Assembly (NCBI GenBank): GCA_910584085.1
Contig: CAJTZY010000003.1
Location: 1,701 to 65,700 of the forward strand
Direction: 5' to 3'
DNA: 64,000 nt
Origin: an uncultured Bacilli bacterium
GTDB lineage: Bacteria > Bacillota_I > Bacilli_A > RF39 > UBA660
A model generated the notes under the pieces. That model did no database searches. It was not told the origin of the DNA and saw only the letters and a list, made by a program, of their open reading frames with translations. The position numbers and the translations under genes are program-made. Below, in pieces: positions 1,489-38,341 of this stretch (its first letter is position 1; every line of letters starts with the position of its first letter).

Positions 1489-3214
<1,726 letters not shown>

Positions 3215-3423
3215 TTTTCTTTTAGTATTTATAAGAAACTATGATATATAATTTGATAAATTAATACTAAATATACAAAAATTAAAAAATTTAATAGTAA
3301 AAATAGCAGAAATTCTAAAAAATGACAACAAAAATTAAAATACTGCAAAAAAATATGCACAAAAAATAAAAAAAGTGATTTGAACATAAAATAGTAATAT
3401 GTTATAACCTTGTTGGTGATTAC

Positions 3424-4260
3424 ATGAACTATTTAAAAAATATAAAAGAATTAATAGAAAATGATATAGTATTAAGAAAGAAAAATAGAATATATGAAGA
3501 AAATCATAGATTAAATACATATTTTGAAATAGGAAGACTTATAGTAAATGCGCAAGGTGGAGAAAGAAGAGCAAAATATGGAAATGGACTTATAAAAGAG
3601 TGGAGTAATATATTAACCAAAGAATATGGTAAGGGATATGATATATCTAATTTAAAGAGAATGAGGCAATTATATTTAGTGTTTCAAAAAGGTGCTACAG
3701 TGTGGCACCAATTGACATGGAGTCATTTAAAATGCGTCTTAAGCTTAAACCCTATTTCGAAAATGAATTATTATATTAATTTATGTATAAAGCAAAATTT
3801 AAGTGTAAGGAATTTAGAAGAAAAAATAAAAAATGGAGAATATGAAAGATTAGAGTATAAAGAAAATATAGAACTTATAGATGAAAAGCAAGAATTAACA
3901 ATAAAAGATATGATAAAAAAACCAATACTTATAAAAACTGATAAAAGAGTTGATAAGCTAAGTGAGAAGGCTTTAAAAAGGTTTATCTTAGAAAAAATAG
4001 AAGAATTTTTAATAGAACTTGGTGTAGGATTTGCATTTATAGGTAGTGAGTATAAACTATGGAACTATAGATGTGACTTATTATTTTTTAATACGGAATT
4101 AACTTGTTATACAGTTATAGAATTAAAGATAAGAAAGTTAAAACCATCTGATATAGGACAAATAAAATACTATATGAATTACATAGATAAAAATATGAAA
4201 AAGGATTATATGAATAAGACAATAGGTATTATACTATGCAGGGAAGATAATGAGAAGTAG
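3424..4260 (+). CDS. PDDEXK-nuclease-domain protein, YhcG/DUF1016 family
   Basis: The N-terminal segment (NTYFEIGRLIV...RAKYGNGLIKEWSNILTKEYGKGYDISNLKRMRQLYLVF) and the C-terminal restriction-endonuclease-like core (CDLLFFNTELTCYTVIELKIRKLKPSDIGQIKYYMNY) are typical of DUF1016 proteins. This is recalled from memory. Confidence 0.7.
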   Translation: MNYLKNIKELIENDIVLRKKNRIYEENHRLNTYFEIGRLIVNAQGGERRAKYGNGLIKEWSNILTKEYGKGYDISNLKRMRQLYLVFQKGATVWHQLTWSHLKCVLSLNPISKMNYYINLCIKQNLSVRNLEEKIKNGEYERLEYKENIELIDEKQELTIKDMIKKPILIKTDKRVDKLSEKALKRFILEKIEEFLIELGVGFAFIGSEYKLWNYRCDLLFFNTELTCYTVIELKIRKLKPSDIGQIKYYMNYIDKNMKKDYMNKTIGIILCREDNEK

Positions 4261-5881: not shown

Positions 5882-6634
5882 ATGAATTTTTTGGGTATTA
5901 TTTTAGGAACAATTATAGGAATAATAATTTTTTTAGGACTTATTGTATTTATAATTTATATGAAAATAAAAAAATTTGGTAGCGATTTAGGATTTGGTAA
6001 CATAAATGAACTAAAATCATTAATAAAAAATGGCGAATATGAAGCAAAATATAATCATAAAAATGCGACAGGAATGACTAAATTATTACTTCCTAAAATA
6101 GTAAAAGATTTTCCTAATTTTAGTGAAAGTGAGTTATATAATAAAGTTGAGGTAAGTTTACTTGCTATATTTAAATCACTAGAAGATAAAAAGGTTAGTA
6201 ATGTAGATGAATTAACACTTATTAAAGGTAATTTAAAAGAAATAATAGATGACCATAAACAAAATAAAATAAGTGTTTTATATGATGATACTAAATTTCA
6301 CGCACATGCAATTAAATATTATAAAAAAACTCCAGGAGCCCTTAACATAACTGTTTCAACCTCACTAGAGTATTTTTATGAAAAAAGTATTGATAAAAAA
6401 GTAGTAGTAAAAAAAGAAAATTATAAAAAACAAACTTCATATACAACAGAATTTATATATATATATGATCCTGAAAAATATGATTCAAAACAAAACCTAA
6501 TTGGGGTTAATTGTCCAAATTGTGGCGCACCTGTAAAAAGTTTAAGTGCGAAAGTATGTGCATATTGTAATTCAGGACTTGAAGACATTAATTTAAAACA
6601 TTGGTATATTAGCTCATATAAAGAAAATTATTAA
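5882..6634 (+). CDS. hypothetical membrane-anchored protein with C-terminal zinc-ribbon
   Basis: N-terminal TM helix. The C-terminus has CPNCGAPV...CAYCNS, a CxxC...CxxC motif. Confidence 0.5.
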   Translation: MNFLGIILGTIIGIIIFLGLIVFIIYMKIKKFGSDLGFGNINELKSLIKNGEYEAKYNHKNATGMTKLLLPKIVKDFPNFSESELYNKVEVSLLAIFKSLEDKKVSNVDELTLIKGNLKEIIDDHKQNKISVLYDDTKFHAHAIKYYKKTPGALNITVSTSLEYFYEKSIDKKVVVKKENYKKQTSYTTEFIYIYDPEKYDSKQNLIGVNCPNCGAPVKSLSAKVCAYCNSGLEDINLKHWYISSYKENY

Positions 6635-29684: not shown

Positions 29685-31664
29685 ATGGAAAATCAAGAAA
29701 ATAATAAATATTTAGGACAAGAAAAAATATCAAAATTACTGTTAAAATTTTCTATACCTTGCATATTATCTTTACTTATAAGTTCTCTATACAATATAGT
29801 AGATCAAATATTTATAGGTAATAGTGAACTTGGATATTTAGGTAATGCCGCAACGACAGTAGTATTTCCAATTACAATTATAGCAGTAGCGTTTGCATGG
29901 TGTTTTGGTGATGGAACTGCTGCATTTTTATCACTATGTCAAGGTAGAAAAGATACAAAAAATGTGCATAAAGCAGTAGGTAATAGTATTTTAGTTACAC
30001 TCATAATAAGTATAATATTTGTAATTATAGGTTTCTTATTTATGGATAAAATATTATATTTATTTGGTGCTTCCGATACGTCAATTATACTTGCACGTGA
30101 TTACTTTAAAATAATACTCGCAGCAATCCCAGTTTATATGTTAGGTAATATGATGAATGCAGTAATACGTGCAGATGGCTCACCAGCGTTTTCAATGGCA
30201 TCAACACTCATTGGAGCAATAATTAATATCATATTAGATCCAATATTTATATTTGGACTTAAATGGGGAATAAAAGGAGCTGCATGGGCAACTATAATTG
30301 GACAAATAGCTTCATTCATTATTGCTATAATTTATTATTTTAGAAGTAAAACATTTAGATTAAAATTAGATAGTTTTAAAATAAATACTAAATTATTTAG
30401 TAATGTAATTAAGCTTGGGATATCAACATTCATAACCCAAATGTCAATTGTAATTATTTCATTAGTTTGTAATATTATGCTTGCAAGATATGGAGTAAAA
30501 TCTAAATATGGAGCAGATATCCCAATAGCTGTAATAGGAATATCTATGAAAGTTTTTACAATAGTAATAAACATAGTAGTTGGATTAATCTTAGGCGCAC
30601 AACCAATACTTGGATATAATTATGGTTCAAATAACTATGACAGAGTTAAAAAGACATTAAAAAAAGTTTTACAAATAACTGTTATAGTGGGAATAGTAGC
30701 CACATTAATATTTGAACTATGCCCACAAATTGTTATTAAAATGTTTGGAACAGAATCAGATTTATATATGGAATTTGCTACTATGACATTTAGAATTTTC
30801 TTAATGTTTATAATATTTACATGTATAATAAAAATGTCTTCAATTTTCTTTCAGGCAGTAGGTTCACCTTTAAAATCATCAATAGTTTCATTATCTAGAG
30901 ATATTGTATGCTTTGTACCACTTGTTATAATATTACCAAATTATATGGGTATAAAGGGTATTTTATATGCTGCCCCTGTTGCAGATTTTGTGGGTATAAT
31001 AATAACAATTATTTTAATTATTAATTTCTTTAAACATTTAGACAGTAAAAAAGAATTAGTAAATGATAGTGATGCTGTAATAAAGAAATCAAGTAGTGGA
31101 GTTATTATAACCATATCAAGAGAACATGGCTCACAAGGTAAATATATTGGTGAATTAGTCGCTAAAAAATTAGGTATTCCTTATTATTATAAAGAGGTAA
31201 CCGCACTTGTAGCAAGTAAAAGCGGATTAGATAAAGAATTTGTATCTAAGTTAAATGATAGTTCTAATATATTACATGATTTATATTTAACAACAACACC
31301 CATAAAATATGCTATAGAGGCACAAGAAAAGGTAATAAAAGAAATTGCTCAAAATGGATCCTGTGTAATAGTAGGTCGTGCAGCTGATTATGTATTAAAA
31401 GATAAAGAGAATTTAGTTAAAATATTTATTTACGCACCAAAAGATTATCGTATAACTAAAGTAATGGAAATGTATAATGATAATAAGGTAAGTGCTAAAA
31501 AGAATATAGAAAAATCGGATAAAGCAAGAAGAAGCTATTACTCTATTATTTCGGGTAAAGAATGGGGTAATAAAGAAAATTATGATTTATGTATAGATTC
31601 TAAATTAGGTACAGAGAAGACTGCAGACATAATTGTTGATTATATAAAGAATATTAATAAATAA
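29685..31664 (+). CDS. MATE-family efflux transporter fused to a cytidylate-kinase-like (PF13189-type) domain
   Basis: About 450 aa of 12-TM MATE-like sequence (LYNIVDQIFIGN...). A soluble C-terminal domain starts VIITISREHGSQGKYIGELVAKKLGIPYYYKE. Confidence 0.75.
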   Translation: MENQENNKYLGQEKISKLLLKFSIPCILSLLISSLYNIVDQIFIGNSELGYLGNAATTVVFPITIIAVAFAWCFGDGTAAFLSLCQGRKDTKNVHKAVGNSILVTLIISIIFVIIGFLFMDKILYLFGASDTSIILARDYFKIILAAIPVYMLGNMMNAVIRADGSPAFSMASTLIGAIINIILDPIFIFGLKWGIKGAAWATIIGQIASFIIAIIYYFRSKTFRLKLDSFKINTKLFSNVIKLGISTFITQMSIVIISLVCNIMLARYGVKSKYGADIPIAVIGISMKVFTIVINIVVGLILGAQPILGYNYGSNNYDRVKKTLKKVLQITVIVGIVATLIFELCPQIVIKMFGTESDLYMEFATMTFRIFLMFIIFTCIIKMSSIFFQAVGSPLKSSIVSLSRDIVCFVPLVIILPNYMGIKGILYAAPVADFVGIIITIILIINFFKHLDSKKELVNDSDAVIKKSSSGVIITISREHGSQGKYIGELVAKKLGIPYYYKEVTALVASKSGLDKEFVSKLNDSSNILHDLYLTTTPIKYAIEAQEKVIKEIAQNGSCVIVGRAADYVLKDKENLVKIFIYAPKDYRITKVMEMYNDNKVSAKKNIEKSDKARRSYYSIISGKEWGNKENYDLCIDSKLGTEKTADIIVDYIKNINK

Positions 31665-31750: not shown

Positions 31751-32725
31751 TTATTTATTAATTATTTCGGCTTTACATAAAGATACAAATGCAGGATTAC
31801 TATTATTGTTTCCCACTACTACAACCATACCATATTCACTTTTTAAAATAGTGCCTTGTGCAACAGTTTGACCTCCAGCATTAATGTCTACACCAGTAGT
31901 CCCGACTGGTAAATATGAACGACTTGCAGCCTCACAGTTAGAATCGCATCCAGTAGGTGTAGGAATAGGCGCTGGCAAATAAGTGATTGCATCATTATAT
32001 GTACTACTAGTTATTGTGATAGATGCTATTCTACATATAGATACTGCCTCTTCAGGTACACCTTGATTATTAACTAGTTGAAATAGTCCAGAATTTGGAT
32101 TATTATTTGGTCCAGGTAAAAGTGATCCAGGCCTTCCACTAGCATTATTACCACTTTCCATTGCTATAATTAAGTTATCATTTGGATATAAGGTAATAAT
32201 TTGTTGTATAATATTTCTCATTTGATCTACACATAAACAAGTTGTTGTATTCGCATTACTTCCGGTAGGTCCAGTAGGTCCAGTAGGTCCAGTAGGTCCG
32301 GTAGGTCCAGTAGGTCCGGTAGGTCCAGTAGGTCCAGTAGGTCCGGTAGGTCCAGTAGCTCCAGTAGCTCCAGTAGCTCCAGTAGGTCCGGTAGGTCCAG
32401 TAGCTCCAGTAGCTCCAGTAGGTCCAGTAGCTCCAGTAGGTCCGGTAGGTCCGGTAGGTCCAGTAGCTCCAGTAGGTCCAGTAGGTCCAGTAGGTCCAGT
32501 AGCTCCAGTAGCTCCAGTAGGTCCAGTAGCTCCAGTAGGTCCGGTAGGTCCGGTAGGTCCAGTAGCTCCAGTAGGTCCAGTAGGTCCAGTAGGTCCACCA
32601 GATGGTCCAGTAGGTCCAGTAGGCCCAGTAGGACCTATAATTTGACAACAATTAGGCTTGAGTTTATTATCCTTTTCTATTTTTTTTAAGGCTCTTTTAT
32701 ATAAACTATCATTATTACAATTCAT
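31751..32725 (-). CDS. collagen-like triple-helix-repeat protein, BclA-like exosporium/surface protein
   Basis: A long G-P-T/G-A-T triplet array lies between a short N-terminal region and a ~170-aa globular C-terminal domain. SD aaaggag precedes the ATG at 32725 ([12 protein letters not shown]...). The track start at 32743 contains the SD. Confidence 0.8.
32261..32636 (-). repeat. 9-nt-periodic coding repeat (GPT/GAT collagen triplets) with a higher-order internal duplication
   Basis: ggtccagta/ggtccggta/gctccagta units are tandemly iterated. One phase break occurs at GPSGGPTG. A roughly 70-100-nt block recurs (about 32420-32490 and 32520-32590). Confidence 0.9.
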
Positions 32726-32819
32726 AGATTTTACTCCTTTCAAACTATTATATGACGCATAATGTTATACACTAATAAAAAATGTTTAGTATTTAAATAT
32801 TTCTTTAAAAAAATATTTA

Positions 32820-32828
32820 TGCTATAAT
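32820..32828 (+). promoter_or_regulatory. extended -10 promoter (tgctataat) for the retron transcript
   Basis: TGnTATAAT match. The predicted start ~7 nt downstream coincides with the a1 repeat at 32832-42. Confidence 0.5.
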
Positions 32829-32831
32829 TTA

Positions 32832-33003
32832 TTTGAGCAATAGTGTTTGGATAATTCCAGCTTTAGCGAGTCGTTAAAGTACATAAGTATTTGATTAAAT
32901 AATTGTAATACTACAAAGGACTATTCTACACGTTGTGTAGCCGCTTCGTTACACTTCGCTTTTAGTCCATTTCCATATTACAATATAATTAGTATTGCTT
33001 AAA
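32832..33003 (+). ncRNA. retron msr-msd-like non-coding RNA
   Basis: a1 tttgagcaata (32832-42) pairs with a2 tattgcttaaa (32993-33003): 11 bp with one G-U. G residues at 32843/32845 lie just 3' of a1. The msr-like hairpin spans 32861-32879. The long msd-like stem pairs 32902-10 with 32976-84 and 32918-23 with 32963-68, with an apical hairpin at 32926-40. It sits immediately upstream of the RT on the same strand. Confidence 0.65.
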
Positions 33004-33016
33004 GGAGGTAATAAAA

Positions 33017-33967
33017 ATGTGGAAGTATATAACAAAAAAAGATTGTACCGAATTTTTATTATCTCTAAATTTAATTGATAATAAACTAAGTGATAAAGAA
33101 AAGGTAAAATTACTTTATTCAATTAGTAATAATATAGAAAATAATTACAAAATTCATAAAATAAAGAAACATAATGGAAAATTTAGAACTATTCATGAGC
33201 CTAGTTATTTGCTTAAATCTGTTCAAAGAAAAATATTAAATAATATTTTAAATAATAAATCAATATCTAAATATGCCAAGGCATATCACAAAGGAATAAG
33301 TCTTAAAGATAATGCATTACCACATTTAAGTAAAAAAATAGTTCTCAAATTAGATATTAAAAATTTTTTTGATAGTGTTAACTTTGTAGATATTTATAAT
33401 ACCTGTTTTGGAATAGAATATTTTCCAAAAACTATTGGGATGCTTTTAACTCATCTTTGTACATATTATGATTATCTTCCTCAAGGCGCACCCACCTCAT
33501 CATATATTTCTAATTTAGTTATGAAAGAATTCGATGAAGAAATAGGTGAATATTGTGATAGTTTAAATATATCATATACTAGGTATTCTGATGATATGAC
33601 ATTTTCTGGAGATTTTAACACGAGTGAAATTATAAAAAAAGTAAGAACTATGTTACATAAACTAGGACTTGAATTAAATAATGAAAAAATAAGTGTTATT
33701 AAATATGGTAATAGGCAAAGTGTAACGGGGATAAATGTAAATGAAAAAATACAAGTTCAGATAGATTATAGAAAAAAGATAAGACAAGAGATATATTTTA
33801 TAAGAAAATATGGAATAGAGTCACATTTAAAATATATAAATTATGTTGATAGTAAAGAGACCTATTTAACTAGTTTAATTGGAAAAGTAAATTATGTATT
33901 ACAAATAAATAATAGTGATAAAGAATTTTTAGAATATAAAAAATATTTAAAGGAGTTATATAAATGA
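33017..33967 (+). CDS. retron-type reverse transcriptase
   Basis: 316 aa with no extra domains. RT motifs are LDIKNFFDS, LPQGAPTSSYISN and YSDDMTF. The retron-typical NAxxH (NALPH) and VTG (SVTGINV) motifs are present. SD aaggagg. Confidence 0.85.
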   Translation: MWKYITKKDCTEFLLSLNLIDNKLSDKEKVKLLYSISNNIENNYKIHKIKKHNGKFRTIHEPSYLLKSVQRKILNNILNNKSISKYAKAYHKGISLKDNALPHLSKKIVLKLDIKNFFDSVNFVDIYNTCFGIEYFPKTIGMLLTHLCTYYDYLPQGAPTSSYISNLVMKEFDEEIGEYCDSLNISYTRYSDDMTFSGDFNTSEIIKKVRTMLHKLGLELNNEKISVIKYGNRQSVTGINVNEKIQVQIDYRKKIRQEIYFIRKYGIESHLKYINYVDSKETYLTSLIGKVNYVLQINNSDKEFLEYKKYLKELYK

Positions 33968-34380
33968 AAAAAATAGTTATTGCAGGAAGTGCAAAATTAC
34001 AAAGTGATATAGAATATTTTAAAGAACATTTTGAAAATAAAGGTTATATTATCTTAGACTATCCCCAAAAAATAGATGAATCTAAATTTATGGAAATATA
34101 TCCAAATGTGCATAAAAATTTTTTTGAGTGTATAACAAAAACTGATATATTATTTATTATGAATGCTGACAAAAATGGTACTAATGGATATATTGGTGCG
34201 GAAACTTTTGCAGAATTAACATTTGGTTTAGCACAAAAATTAGTTTATAATAAGGATATTGAATTAGTTATACTAAAAATGCCAGGTAAAGAAGTTGCAT
34301 GTTATGATGAAATTAGTTTATGGCTTAAGCTTGGTTGGATAAAACTATATGAAGGAGATTATTATGAATTTAAGAAATGA
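33964..34380 (+). CDS. nucleoside 2-deoxyribosyltransferase-like (NDT/DNPH1-fold) small protein; candidate retron effector
   Basis: The ATG overlaps the RT stop (ATGA). KIVIAGS forms the first strand. TDILFIMNADKNGTNGYIGAETFAELTFGLA fits the NDT pattern (acidic catalytic residue in a G..E..LG.A context). 138 aa with no DNA-binding extension. Confidence 0.55.
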   Translation: MKKIVIAGSAKLQSDIEYFKEHFENKGYIILDYPQKIDESKFMEIYPNVHKNFFECITKTDILFIMNADKNGTNGYIGAETFAELTFGLAQKLVYNKDIELVILKMPGKEVACYDEISLWLKLGWIKLYEGDYYEFKK

Positions 34381-34924
34381 AATAGAAAATTATATACCAT
34401 TTGATATCGAGGAGGAAAAAATTAAAGAACACTTATTAAAATGGATTGATGAATTTGATGATGTTTTAACTAGAAATAATGAATTTGGTCATTTTACATC
34501 ATCAGCATTCGTAGTAAACAAGGATAGAACTAGAATGCTTGCTGTATATCACAATATATATGATGCTTGGATTTTCCCAGGTGGTCATGCTGATGGAGAA
34601 GGGGATTTACTTTCTGTTGCAGTACGTGAAGTAGAAGAAGAAACAGGCGTAAAGCCCAAAATATTAGATAATTCAATTTTTGCAATTTCAGCCTCACCAA
34701 TAGTTGGTCATGTAAAAAGAGGAAAATATATTCCAGCGCACACACATTTAGATGTTATATATCTATTAGAAGCAGATGATAAAGAACAATTAACTTTTAG
34801 AAAAGATGAAAGCAAAGGTGTAAAGTGGATTACATTTGAAGAGGCAACTTCAAGTAATGTTGTTGATTTTATAAGACCTGTAAATAAAAGATTAATAAAA
34901 AAATTAGAATCATTAAAAAAATAA
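34364..34924 (+). CDS. NUDIX hydrolase
   Basis: Nudix box GGHADGEGDLLSVAVREVEEETGV. SD gaaggag precedes ATG 34364. It overlaps the preceding ORF by 17 nt. Confidence 0.85.
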   Translation: MNLRNEIENYIPFDIEEEKIKEHLLKWIDEFDDVLTRNNEFGHFTSSAFVVNKDRTRMLAVYHNIYDAWIFPGGHADGEGDLLSVAVREVEEETGVKPKILDNSIFAISASPIVGHVKRGKYIPAHTHLDVIYLLEADDKEQLTFRKDESKGVKWITFEEATSSNVVDFIRPVNKRLIKKLESLKK

Positions 34925-34935
34925 AAGTTTTACTT

Positions 34936-34960
34936 AAGACAAATTTTTGTCTTTTTTCTT
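34936..34960 (+). terminator. Rho-independent terminator closing the RT-NDT-NUDIX unit
   Basis: A stem pairing aagacaaa with tttgtctt is followed by a T-run. Confidence 0.75.
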
Positions 34961-35022
34961 ACAAAACTGTAAGGTTTATAATACTTATTTAGTGATATAA
35001 TAAAATTAATGGAGGAGTTAGT

Positions 35023-36129
35023 ATGAACTATATAAATACAATAAAAACTGCAATAATTATATTTCCTTTTATTGCTTTATTATTCACAATACCATTTATA
35101 CTTCATCAGTATCACAAATATGGTTCTATTAATAAACTTAGAGTGCTTATTATTTACTCATTTATTCTTTATATGATAACTATTTATTTTTTAGTTATAT
35201 TACCACTTCCAAGTAGGAATAGTGTTGTACCAAAGAAAAATATGATTCATTTAATTCCATTTGGATTTATTAATGATTTTTTGAGCGAATCGAATTTTGT
35301 ACTAAGTGATCCATCAACATACTTAAATGCAATAAAACACCCAAGTTTTTATACGGTTGCATTTAACATATTAATGACTATTCCATTTGGAATGTATTTA
35401 AGATACTATTTTAAATGTAGTTTTAAAAAAACTTTCATTTTAAGTCTTACACTCAGTTTGTTTTTTGAGATGACACAAATTACTGGATTATACTTTATTT
35501 ATCCATATCCATACCGTGTATTTGATGTTGATGATTTAATAACAAACACACTAGGTGGGGTACTTGGATATCTTATTATTGGAATTTTTATTCGTCATTT
35601 GCCAACTAGAGATGAATTAGACGAAAAATCAAGAACTACTGGAGAAGTTGTTTCAGGATTAAGGAGAGTAACTGTATTTTGTTTAGATATGTTTATATAT
35701 TTATTTATAAGTTTATTTTGTGTAAATAATTATATTAGATTAACCATATTTATAATCTATTATATAATTTGTCCATTATGTATGAATGGAAAAACATTGG
35801 GTAGTAAATTTTTAAATGTAAGATTAGAATTCACTAGATATAAATTTATTAAATGTATGTTAAGGATAATATTTTTATATATTTATTATTTTGCTATACC
35901 ATTTGGCTTAATGTTTGTAAGTTATATAGCAGTTCAAAATTTAAATTTAGAGGCAACTTATTCTATTTATTTTTATGTGATAATTATGTTTATTATCTTT
36001 ATGTTTTATATGATTAATATATTTACTATATTAATAAAGAAAAAAATATTTTATGATAAGTTATTTAAAGTTAACTATAAAAGTACAATAAATGAAAATA
36101 AATTAAGCAAAGCTAATTTAGAGGAGTAG
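35023..36129 (+). CDS. VanZ-like N-terminal domain fused to an RDD-like C-terminal membrane domain
   Basis: VanZ-type motifs are IPFGFINDF, ILMTIPFGMYLRYYF and VDDLITNTLGGVLGYLI. A second multi-TM module follows GLRRVTVFCLDMFIY. Confidence 0.55.
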   Translation: MNYINTIKTAIIIFPFIALLFTIPFILHQYHKYGSINKLRVLIIYSFILYMITIYFLVILPLPSRNSVVPKKNMIHLIPFGFINDFLSESNFVLSDPSTYLNAIKHPSFYTVAFNILMTIPFGMYLRYYFKCSFKKTFILSLTLSLFFEMTQITGLYFIYPYPYRVFDVDDLITNTLGGVLGYLIIGIFIRHLPTRDELDEKSRTTGEVVSGLRRVTVFCLDMFIYLFISLFCVNNYIRLTIFIIYYIICPLCMNGKTLGSKFLNVRLEFTRYKFIKCMLRIIFLYIYYFAIPFGLMFVSYIAVQNLNLEATYSIYFYVIIMFIIFMFYMINIFTILIKKKIFYDKLFKVNYKSTINENKLSKANLEE

Positions 36130-37741: not shown

Positions 37742-38341
37742 ATGAAGAATAAAGATATATTAGATAAGATAAACAGTTTATCAAATGAAGAAAAAAGAAA
37801 TTTAGATTACAATGAATTGGTAAATATTATTAATGTATTATCACCCGATGAAATTATAAGCTTAAGTAATATAATTGGCTATCCCGTTTTTACAAGACTT
37901 TGCATGGGAGATTTAAAACATAAATTTGTATTATTACAGGATGGGGCAGCAGCAATAATAGTAAATAATAAAGGACAAATTTTATTGCAGAGTAGAGCTG
38001 ATCGTGATAAATGGGGATTACCAGGAGGATGTCAAGAACTTGGTGAAAGATTTCAGGATACAGTAATACGTGAGGTAAAAGAGGAAACAAATTTAGATGT
38101 TTTAGAGAAAGACTTAGAATTAATTGATATAGTGTCTGGAAAAAGTAGGAGAAATGAATATCCAAACGGAGATGTTGTTATTAATAATACAGCACTCTAC
38201 CTAATAAAGAACTATTCTGGTGAATTAAAATGGGATACAGAATCTAAAGAAATGAAATTTTTTGATTTGGATAAATTACCAATTAACCAAAATGATCCAG
38301 ATTTAATTAAAATATATATTAATTATGTAAATAAAATGTAG
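37742..38341 (+). CDS. NUDIX hydrolase
   Basis: Nudix box GGCQELGERFQDTVIREVKEETNL. Confidence 0.85.
   Translation: MKNKDILDKINSLSNEEKRNLDYNELVNIINVLSPDEIISLSNIIGYPVFTRLCMGDLKHKFVLLQDGAAAIIVNNKGQILLQSRADRDKWGLPGGCQELGERFQDTVIREVKEETNLDVLEKDLELIDIVSGKSRRNEYPNGDVVINNTALYLIKNYSGELKWDTESKEMKFFDLDKLPINQNDPDLIKIYINYVNKM

Follow-up and report, generated by a model that had tools for sequence, protein, structure and literature searches.

A probable standalone Ec107-like retron directly upstream of an NDT-fold and NUDIX gene pair in an uncultured Bacilli bacterium

The Ec107-like retrons, which bear the name 'clade2_Ec107like' in a 2026 SPIRE survey (10.64898/2026.05.14.725207) and form the Retron-Eco5/Ec107 branch in Mestre et al. 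2020 (PMC7736814), have been described as a lineage without accessory genes (PMC7736814; bioRxiv 10.64898/2026.05.14.725207). The survey ranks them as the second most abundant retron group, with a distribution mainly in host-associated Bacillota (10.64898/2026.05.14.725207). Ec107 itself, from E. coli, adjoins a phosphoribosyltransferase gene. Type II retrons (Ec86/Eco1, St85/Sen2 and Ec73) use NDT-like effectors (PMC7736814), while type III-A, the sister of the Ec107 branch, has a PRTase-like effector and accessory genes with a nucleotide-metabolism flavour. The locus considered here lies in a 64,000-nucleotide stretch of DNA from an uncultured Bacilli bacterium, hereafter the window. An initial annotation had interpreted it as a complete retron-like locus of an undescribed type, with a small NDT-fold protein and a NUDIX hydrolase as effectors. 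The promoter, the structured RNA and the reverse transcriptase (RT) indeed constitute a genuine retron, but a new tripartite type is not supported: related RT loci lack the two downstream genes and the gene pair exists without the RT. We favor, with a probability of about 0.8, a reading in which a standalone ('orphan') Ec107-like retron sits directly before a pre-existing nucleotide-metabolism pair encoding the NDT-fold and NUDIX proteins (Table 1).

Table 1. Features of the retron and of the adjoining gene pair, in window coordinates
Feature	Position	Strand	Basis or remark
Extended -10 promoter TGCTATAAT	32820..32828	+	conserved across the family; left edge of family-wide conservation
Retron ncRNA (msr-msd)	32832..33003	+	fold, inverted repeats, covariation
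a1; a2	32832-32842; 32993-33003	+	terminal inverted repeats of the ncRNA
Candidate branching (priming) guanosine	32843..32845	+	G32843 or G32845, directly 3' of a1
msr hairpins	32848-32859 and 32860-32880	+	
msd hairpin	32902-32984	+	long stem 32902-23/32963-84
Inner msd hairpin CTACAC/GTGTAG	32926-32940	+	conserved
Shine-Dalgarno GGAGG of the RT gene	33004..33008	+	read from sequence; columns conserved in homologue alignment
Retron RT, clade 2 Ec107-like, 316 aa	33017..33967	+	PADLOC, Pfam, motifs
NDT-superfamily-fold protein, 138 aa	33964..34380	+	AF2 model, Foldseek
NUDIX hydrolase, 186 aa from probable start ATG 34364	34364..34924	+	Pfam, PDB match; ORF open from 34349
Weak terminator-like hairpin AAGACAA/UUGUCUU, then U-run (probable end of unit)	34936..34960	+	7-bp stem 34936-34953

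The three ORFs are present where they had been annotated (the NUDIX frame as 34349-34924). The first was called a retron RT on the strength of its NAxxH, YSDD and SVTG motifs, and this call holds: NALPH (aa 99-103), YSDD (190-193) and VTG (236-238) show little or no variation across 24 homologues, and the best PADLOC matches are all retron RT models. The PADLOC check that had been proposed for the locus recovered RT_Ec107-like at 1.9e-129 (429.4 bits), with the alignment covering profile positions 2-306 of 307. The next-best model, RT_III-A, reached 358.8 bits, RT_II-A 227 bits, and the NCBIfam model for St85 217, below its cut-off of 235; the Pfam RVT_1 match had an E-value of 8.2e-25. Judged from these profile scores, the protein falls within the known clade-2 Ec107-like lineage and is distinct from the sister type III-A. 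Homologues number 4272 at E <= 1e-20, thousands of them at 60-80% identity; relatives come from Bacillota and gut-associated MAGs. A possibility that the RT C-terminus arose by read-through into an old leader of the downstream small gene was rejected, as the RT ends at the normal length of its family. In scans of viral contigs the RT had no close relative (best 35% identity) and the small protein none at all, and hence a prophage origin is not indicated.

Alignment of 78 homologous upstream regions showed that the TG and TATAAT positions of the promoter element TGCTATAAT are nearly invariant, which bears out its annotation as a real extended -10 element at 32820-32828. Conservation ends just upstream of this element, and further upstream the loci are mutually unrelated in sequence. 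A generic two-hexamer promoter scan, which requires a -35 element, did not list it. The structured RNA proposed downstream of the promoter, about 175 nt long, was likewise confirmed in its terminal inverted repeats and long central stem: the non-coding stretch has a computed minimum free energy of -47.9 kcal/mol (z = -4.2), and RNAalifold combined with pair counts gave 98.7% paired cells across the 78 sequences. Compensatory changes occur in 18 of 32 pairs, against 5.7 +/- 1.4 in shuffled alignments (0/500 shuffles equal the observed value) and 0-6 compensatory pairs in slid controls. By these comparative criteria it is a conserved, covarying RNA of the msr/msd type. G32843 and G32845 (numbered 42 and 44 in the first aligned sequence) are both nearly invariant in the homologue alignment, and general retron anatomy suggests one or the other as a candidate priming guanosine. 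An Rfam scan of 32000-35500 at E <= 10 returned chance matches to miRNAs and sRNAs, but neither a retron msr family nor any other RNA of relevance. The sole plus-strand terminator predicted by a scan of the region (32935-32954) was rejected as such, since it lies inside the msd hairpin. The locus thus resembles the Ec107-like group in its full-length match to the lineage model and in its layout, in which an ncRNA bounded by a1/a2 repeats and containing msr and msd hairpins precedes the RT.

The NDT-fold call for the small protein also proved right. Its AlphaFold2 model (pLDDT 92) is a single domain spanning the 138 aa, as expected of the minimal form without a DNA-binding extension that had been described. 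Foldseek searches with this model recovered NDT-superfamily structures, with 4mcj (a putative NDT), 4jen, 2a0k, BcmB, MilB, NDTs and DNPH1 as top matches (E 2e-4 to 1e-2, TM 0.5-0.6, probability 1.00). The fold is thus shared with NDT N-glycosidases such as DNPH1/Rcl, MilB and BcmB, although sequence similarity to solved members is not detectable: no Pfam (including PF05014 and PF15891) or NCBIfam model matched, and a profile of the family recovered only chance matches among PDB sequences. The small protein has 591 homologues. Its family shows an invariant acidic motif, GYIGAExxAELxFG, E80 and E84 are invariant, and the window protein retains 42/42 invariant columns of its family. It is probably an N-glycosidase or a transferase that acts on nucleotides or nucleosides. 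No PADLOC retron effector model matched it; low-scoring PADLOC matches to AbiO and Nhi (18.7 and 16.1 bits) were judged to reflect Rossmann-like or compositional similarity.

The NUDIX identity of the third protein was confirmed by Pfam PF00293 (2.8e-14), by a match to PDB 3fcm over its full length (2.4e-52), and by a NUDIX box visible in the translation, GGHADGEGDLLSVAVREVEEETG (expected form GX5EX7REUXEEXGU). The start at ATG 34364 is favored because 186-aa orthologues match it, and with this start the annotated overlap of 17 nt with the small gene is obtained. A marginal match to PDC-S07 (E 0.0066) reflects the generic NUDIX fold. As for the terminator annotated at 34936-60, a 7-bp hairpin followed by a U-run is present but weak (-5.5 kcal/mol, z = -1.2), and a terminator scan that needs at least 3 GC pairs did not report it. 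The genes around the locus (Pfam: NUDIX, VanZ, collagen-like, MatE/cytidylate-kinase-like, DUF5301 and PRAI) are of a housekeeping nature and do not form a defence island; unlike in type III-A systems, no PRTase-like gene is found among the window neighbours examined with Pfam.

The proposed effector role of the two downstream genes predicts that they accompany the RT across genomes. The neighbourhoods of related RTs, which share 59-73% identity with that of the window, were surveyed in 80 species-level genome loci. The small protein was found within 6 kb of the RT in 0/80 of these, and even at E <= 10 its profile detected nothing near any of the RTs; a weak match to the window NUDIX protein occurred near one RT (1/80). 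The largest cluster of neighbouring proteins comprised 8/80 loci and no family recurred more often, in agreement with the literature on this lineage. RTs 79-83% identical to that of the window adjoin other genes, namely mnmA (3-nt gap), iscS (17-nt overlap) and an NPCBM gene, and the loci of the closest other RTs (83%; L093/L094) have an intact RT and ncRNA but no more of the small gene than a ~50-nt stub. Homologous RT loci without NDT or NUDIX neighbours, the outcome that had been named beforehand as contrary to the effector reading, are thus what was found.

The converse comparison gave the same picture. Outside the window lineage, 0/37 loci of the small protein have an RT beside it, and among its metagenome loci the count is 0/29. 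Eight loci without an RT (L001-L008) share the gene order HAD-NUDIX-small-tsaE-tsaB-rimI, and 4 of the 29 RT-less metagenome loci (L103, L105, L107 and L115) have the small gene followed by a window-type NUDIX gene (63-82% identity). In L103 and L105 these genes share a 1-nt overlap, and in L103 a PF05014 NDT gene lies directly upstream. The genomic partners of the small protein comprise NUDIX, HAD phosphatase and PF05014 NDT genes, a setting that recalls NDT-superfamily nucleotide N-glycosidases and NUDIX sanitation enzymes. The window arrangement was recovered elsewhere only on three short contigs of sister strains or species, with RTs 82-89% and small proteins 86-88% identical. An identical copy of the window locus was additionally found on a 4.3-kb Logan contig from run ERR3199593.

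Against these observations have to be weighed the features that suggested a functional unit in the first place. These would be accounted for by a lineage-specific capture of the NDT-fold and NUDIX proteins as effectors of a tripartite or quadripartite abortive-infection system. The N-glycosidase-like protein and the NUDIX enzyme could then form a nucleotide-depleting effector pair in this lineage only, with NUDIX proteins more broadly acting as occasional, independently recruited partners; we consider both the capture and this particular form of it improbable. The junction is certainly precise: the RT stop and the start of the small gene overlap in an ATGA (4 nt), as annotated, an AAGGAG within the last RT codons serves as the ribosome-binding site of the small gene, no terminator separates the two genes in the window, and a single promoter and a single terminator-like hairpin bracket the whole unit. 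The order RT-small-NUDIX is retained in L100-L102 and L132. Effector-module swapping is moreover known for retron cassettes, and a retron RT near a protein of NDT-like fold recalls type II systems (PMC7736814). However, the window RT scores far better on the Ec107-like than on the RT_II-A model, and the small protein differs from the type II effectors in lacking a C-terminal DNA-binding domain, in matching no retron effector model and in not co-occurring with the RT family. The arrangement occurs in one narrow lineage only and resembles a single orthologous locus (the VanZ gene downstream in L102 is 93% identical), the NUDIX gene appears split in L100, and the gene pair is unchanged where the RT is missing.

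Nor is the tightness of the junction peculiar to this gene pair. A downstream same-strand ORF lies within 10 nt of the RT in only 7/59 loci, and the seven partners (NUDIX twice, GNAT twice, FtsA-like, LiaF and MnmA) are functionally unrelated. As relatives join mnmA, iscS, FtsA-like and GNAT genes equally tightly, the ATGA overlap is no evidence of coupling. Two of the closely joined partners are NUDIX genes directly downstream of the RT (L076 and L026), which with the window gives three such cases. Beyond their fold the three NUDIX proteins show no relation to one another, and moderate PDC-S07 matches of the L076 and L026 proteins again reflect that generic fold. An enrichment of NUDIX genes beside Ec107-like RTs was considered and rejected: they make up 2/59 immediate downstream ORFs versus 6/734 ORFs elsewhere in the flanks (Fisher p = 0.11), which is above the background of ~1% in RT flanks, though not significantly. 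Since the cassette has repeatedly come to lie in front of unrelated host operons, a stop/start overlap and a shared promoter do not prove a functional module in the Ec107-like family. Literature searches found no retron-NUDIX or retron-NDT-NUDIX system.

Under the preferred reading of a standalone retron, the promoter would transcribe the ncRNA and the RT, which would bind the msr hairpins, prime from the 2'-OH of a conserved G just 3' of a1 and copy the msd hairpin, yielding a branched msDNA some 70-90 nt long. Many related loci have a terminator hairpin at the RT stop (e.g. L039, L012, L046, L051 and L069). The window copy differs from most relatives in lacking this terminator and in being fused head-to-tail, through the ATGA, to the host gene pair. 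Because the terminator is absent in the window lineage, transcription probably runs on into the small and NUDIX genes. Such read-through would be an accident of placement rather than a tripartite design, and we judge the small gene, though probably co-transcribed with the retron, to be a host nucleotide-metabolism gene and not a part of it. Its product and the NUDIX enzyme would most likely cooperate in the salvage or sanitation of nucleotides, with or without a retron beside them: the NUDIX enzyme might generate an NMP from an NTP or NDP-X, and from this NMP the putative N-glycosidase could then free the base and a sugar phosphate.

A further alternative, to which we give slightly less credence than to the capture of local effectors, is that the retron acts together with a product of another locus, such as a trans-acting effector or host factor, for instance a defence-type ATPase, and that its local neighbours are irrelevant. 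Strong purifying selection on the RT and ncRNA in many species implies a function that the RT alone may not deliver. In L009-L012 and in 5/80 genome loci a 288-aa AAA_15/SMC_N ATPase is encoded ~200 nt upstream of the retron on the same strand, with matches to the PtuA, AriA, AbiLi and retron ATPase-Toprim_I-B models (E 1e-11 to 1e-15). This ATPase is, however, limited to one closely related sub-lineage, where the element carries relaxase, TnpV and resolvase genes, and no such ATPase is found among the examined parts of the window; most orphan-retron genomes, moreover, lack homologues of known retron-associated proteins (Mestre et al., PMC7736814). It is very unlikely that the cassette is a decaying or inactive relic whose promoter simply drives the downstream metabolic genes, for although Ec107-like retrons lack a demonstrated function, this RT retains its full length and every catalytic motif, the ncRNA carries compensatory changes and the RT family is large and well conserved.

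The locus is thus one more copy of an abundant, known retron group, and the effector architecture proposed for it dissolves on comparison of genomes. As such it could offer a convenient natural test case for the role of effector-less Ec107-like retrons. The small-protein family, which is highly conserved, possesses an NDT fold, is not represented in Pfam and has NUDIX, HAD and NDT genes as partners, probably comprises nucleotide-metabolism enzymes and may merit attention of its own.

The RT, the reverse transcriptase of the retron in the window, was recovered over its whole length by the PADLOC model RT_Ec107-like (E = 1.9e-129, 429 bits), with RT_III-A (at most 359 bits) and RT_II-A (at most 227 bits) as runners-up; the NCBIfam St85 retron model scored 217 bits, under its cut-off of 235. 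It contains NALPH, YSDD and VTG motifs that are invariant or nearly so across 24 homologues. These scores and motifs bear out the retron RT proposed in the initial annotation and, on sequence grounds, place it in the clade-2 Ec107-like branch. Ec107 has been placed in a clade-2 branch without an associated protein cluster, in which 2 of 59 RTs adjoin a phosphoribosyltransferase that its authors considered possibly unrelated (Mestre et al. 2020, PMC7736814). A 2026 survey lists clade2_Ec107like as the second most abundant retron group, with 192 members, 93% in Bacillota and 91% host-associated (bioRxiv 10.64898/2026.05.14.725207). There is good support for a real retron, a member of a described effector-less lineage; the new type that had been proposed, ordered ncRNA-RT-NDT-NUDIX, is not supported. 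A literature search for a retron-NUDIX system found none, and both the RT clade and the 138-aa NDT-fold protein encoded downstream (the small protein) were absent from the viral contigs scanned.

The region upstream of the RT gene (32830-33010) has a predicted folding energy of -47.9 kcal/mol (z = -4.2) and contains terminal inverted repeats and a long hairpin. At 78 distinct loci the 215 nt preceding the RT start were aligned; their DNA has a median identity of 76% to the window. TGnTATAAT is nearly invariant in this alignment and similarity stops just upstream of it, which marks the left boundary of a mobile cassette. RNAalifold recovered 32 pairs in six helices, and pair counting found 98.7% of cells paired and 18 pairs with compensatory changes, as against 5.7 +/- 1.4 in shuffles (0 of 500 reaching 18) and 0-6 in slid controls. 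The a1/a2 helix covaries: at one of its pairs, 59 sequences have GC and 17 have AU. The promoter and msr/msd-type RNA of the initial annotation are upheld by these features. No Rfam family matches the ncRNA; the literature does report a covariance model for msr/msd named 'Ec107_like' (Mestre et al.).

The previously assigned ORF positions all agree with the ORF map (see table). Read from its likely start, the NUDIX protein has 186 aa, the same length as its orthologues, and its gene overlaps that of the small protein by 17 nt. Other neighbors encode an MMPL transporter, DUF5301, a PRA isomerase and a LysR regulator, and the neighborhood is no defence island. The collagen-like protein combines a long GPT/GAT triple-helix repeat region with a globular C-terminal domain, and presumably resembles BclA-type exosporium proteins. 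The second NUDIX gene, unrelated to the RT-linked one, illustrates the frequency of such genes in this genome.

Features of the retron locus and its surroundings, with an ATPase gene found in related loci
Feature	Position	Strand	Remarks
MatE-cytidylate kinase-like fusion	29685-31664	+	659 aa; MATE efflux/flippase-like membrane domain, C-terminal PF13189 domain
Collagen-repeat protein	31751-32743	-	330 aa; Pfam Collagen 7e-16; flanks retron cassette
ncRNA terminal inverted repeats	32832-42 and 32993-33003		
ncRNA long hairpin	32902-23/32963-84		
RT	33017-33967	+	316 aa
Small protein	33964-34380	+	138 aa; ATG overlaps RT stop (ATGA)
NUDIX hydrolase	34349-34924 (open)	+	likely start ATG 34364
VanZ-family membrane protein	35023-36129		flanking gene
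Second NUDIX hydrolase	37742-38341	+	199 aa; 3 kb downstream, adjoins PRA isomerase gene
Upstream ATPase (related loci)	L009-L012 ~2926-3792; L046 4938-5807; four other genome loci	as ncRNA	

The small protein has no match in Pfam, NCBIfam or PDB sequences. Its confident AlphaFold model (pLDDT 92.2) best matches 4mcj (a putative nucleoside deoxyribosyltransferase), the CMP N-glycosidases BcmB and MilB, bona fide NDTs and DNPH1 (E = 2e-4 to 1e-2, TM 0.5-0.6), and hence the earlier NDT assignment is right at the level of the fold. At least 591 proteins belong to its family, in which mean column identity is 78% and the motif GYIGAExxAELxFG is invariant. No Pfam or NCBIfam model covers the family; since NUDIX, HAD-phosphatase and PF05014 NDT genes are its recurrent neighbors, it has the look of an uncharacterised enzyme of nucleotide metabolism. 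In PADLOC the small protein weakly matches the central part of the models AbiO and Nhi (E = 1.5e-4 and 8e-4, 16-19 bits), which probably reflects Rossmann-like or compositional similarity. The NUDIX assignment is secured by an intact NUDIX box, a Pfam match and similarity to PDB 3fcm along the full length (2.4e-52). The terminator proposed downstream of it is plausible but weak: the 7-bp AT-rich hairpin and U-run exist, with -5.5 kcal/mol and z = -1.2, but are not on the terminator scan list.

The initial annotation took the NDT-like and NUDIX proteins for retron effectors, a reading it tied to their co-occurrence with homologous RTs. This association fails in both directions. One genome per species gave 80 loci, mostly from gut Bacilli, RF39-like and Erysipelotrichaceae MAGs, with RTs 59-73% identical; the small protein lies within 6 kb of the RT in none of them, its family profile finds no match near any of the 80 RTs at E <= 10, and one locus, L076, has a weak match (27%) to the window NUDIX. 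Neighbor clustering within 4 kb at the 80 loci found no recurrent partner, the largest cluster covering 8. Even RTs 79-83% identical to that of the window have different neighbors, one following infC-rpmI-rplT and preceding an NPCBM gene (P0003), one 3 nt from mnmA (P0005) and one overlapping an iscS-like gene by 17 nt (P0004). The RT-small-NUDIX order is common only to L100, L101, L102 and L132 (the last identical to the window), with VanZ also common to L102 and L132; at 82-93% protein identity to the window these appear to be a single locus, orthologous between sister strains or species. In L100 the NUDIX gene (1890-2449) is called as two pieces of 34 and 129 aa, which suggests a frameshift, either an assembly error or decay.

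Conversely, none of the 29 metagenome loci carrying the small protein has an RT, and two homologues of 76-77% identity, on 79 and 173 contigs, occur in HAD-NUDIX-small-tsaE-tsaB-rimI-lon neighborhoods without one. In four of the 29 (L103, L105, L107, L115) the small gene is directly followed by an orthologue of the window NUDIX (63-82% identity), with 1-nt overlaps in L103 and L105 and a PF05014 nucleoside deoxyribosyltransferase gene just upstream in L103. The pair is thus a module with translational coupling that exists independently of the RT, in a setting of nucleotide metabolism. The reading we favor, with a probability of about 0.8, is that these are two host genes for nucleotide salvage or sanitation, and that in a single narrow lineage the cassette lies ahead of them by chance and is probably co-transcribed with them. 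Transcription from the cassette would probably read through into both genes; this, like msDNA synthesis and the enzymology of the pair, is predicted.

As the RT ends at the usual length of its family (316 versus 315-322 aa), the two genes abut precisely at the ATGA overlap. Many relatives (e.g. L039, L012, L046, L051, L069) have a terminator hairpin across or after the RT stop, and in 7 of 59 loci a same-strand ORF lies within 10 nt of the RT. The products of ten downstream genes that are tightly joined to the RT gene, or close to it, are functionally mixed (NUDIX in L076 and L026, two GNATs, FtsA-like, LiaF, MnmA, kinase-like, and two without a Pfam match); tight coupling to any downstream gene is thus a recurrent accident of the cassette's landing site. 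The NUDIX genes of L076 (6984-7508) and L026 (6953-7429), from other species, immediately follow Ec107-like RTs with an 11-nt gap and a 23-nt overlap; both match PDC-S07, a candidate family of PADLOC (E = 2.6e-10 and 1.4e-12). The same flanks hold 8 NUDIX among 793 ORFs, spread from -4.8 to +3.3 kb; 2 of 59 immediately downstream versus 6 of 734 elsewhere is not a significant enrichment (Fisher p = 0.11), and the three NUDIX proteins encoded next to RTs have only the fold in common. NUDIX as a partner of Ec107-like RTs thus stays at the level of a hint. Genuine lineage-specific effector capture is unlikely, and a partner encoded in trans slightly less likely still.

Two loci with RTs 83% identical to that of the window, L093 and L094 (upstream ncRNA region of the latter 92% identical), carry at the RT stop a 17-codon stub, MNKITITGSTKLKIYIK* (5948-6000 and 3972-4025, respectively), within a context unlike the window (infC-rpmI-rplT ... 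RT ... NPCBM). It aligns at ~75% with the opening ~50 nt of the small gene, diverging thereafter, and the tblastn match (E = 0.8, AT-rich region) is not significant alone. The stub may be what is left of an ancestral junction between the RT and small genes; if real, the retron stayed intact after loss of the small and NUDIX genes. That the retron in the window is a dead element, set against its conserved RT motifs and covarying RNA, is very improbable.

In one closely related Ec107-like sub-lineage, the gene for a 288-aa AAA_15/SMC_N ATPase precedes the ncRNA by ~200 nt, on an element that also bears relaxase, TnpV and resolvase genes. The ATPase matches the PtuA, AriA, AbiLi, mad3 and retron ATPase-Toprim_I-B models (E = 1e-11 to 1e-15), and is possibly an accessory or neighboring defence gene in a lineage said to have none.
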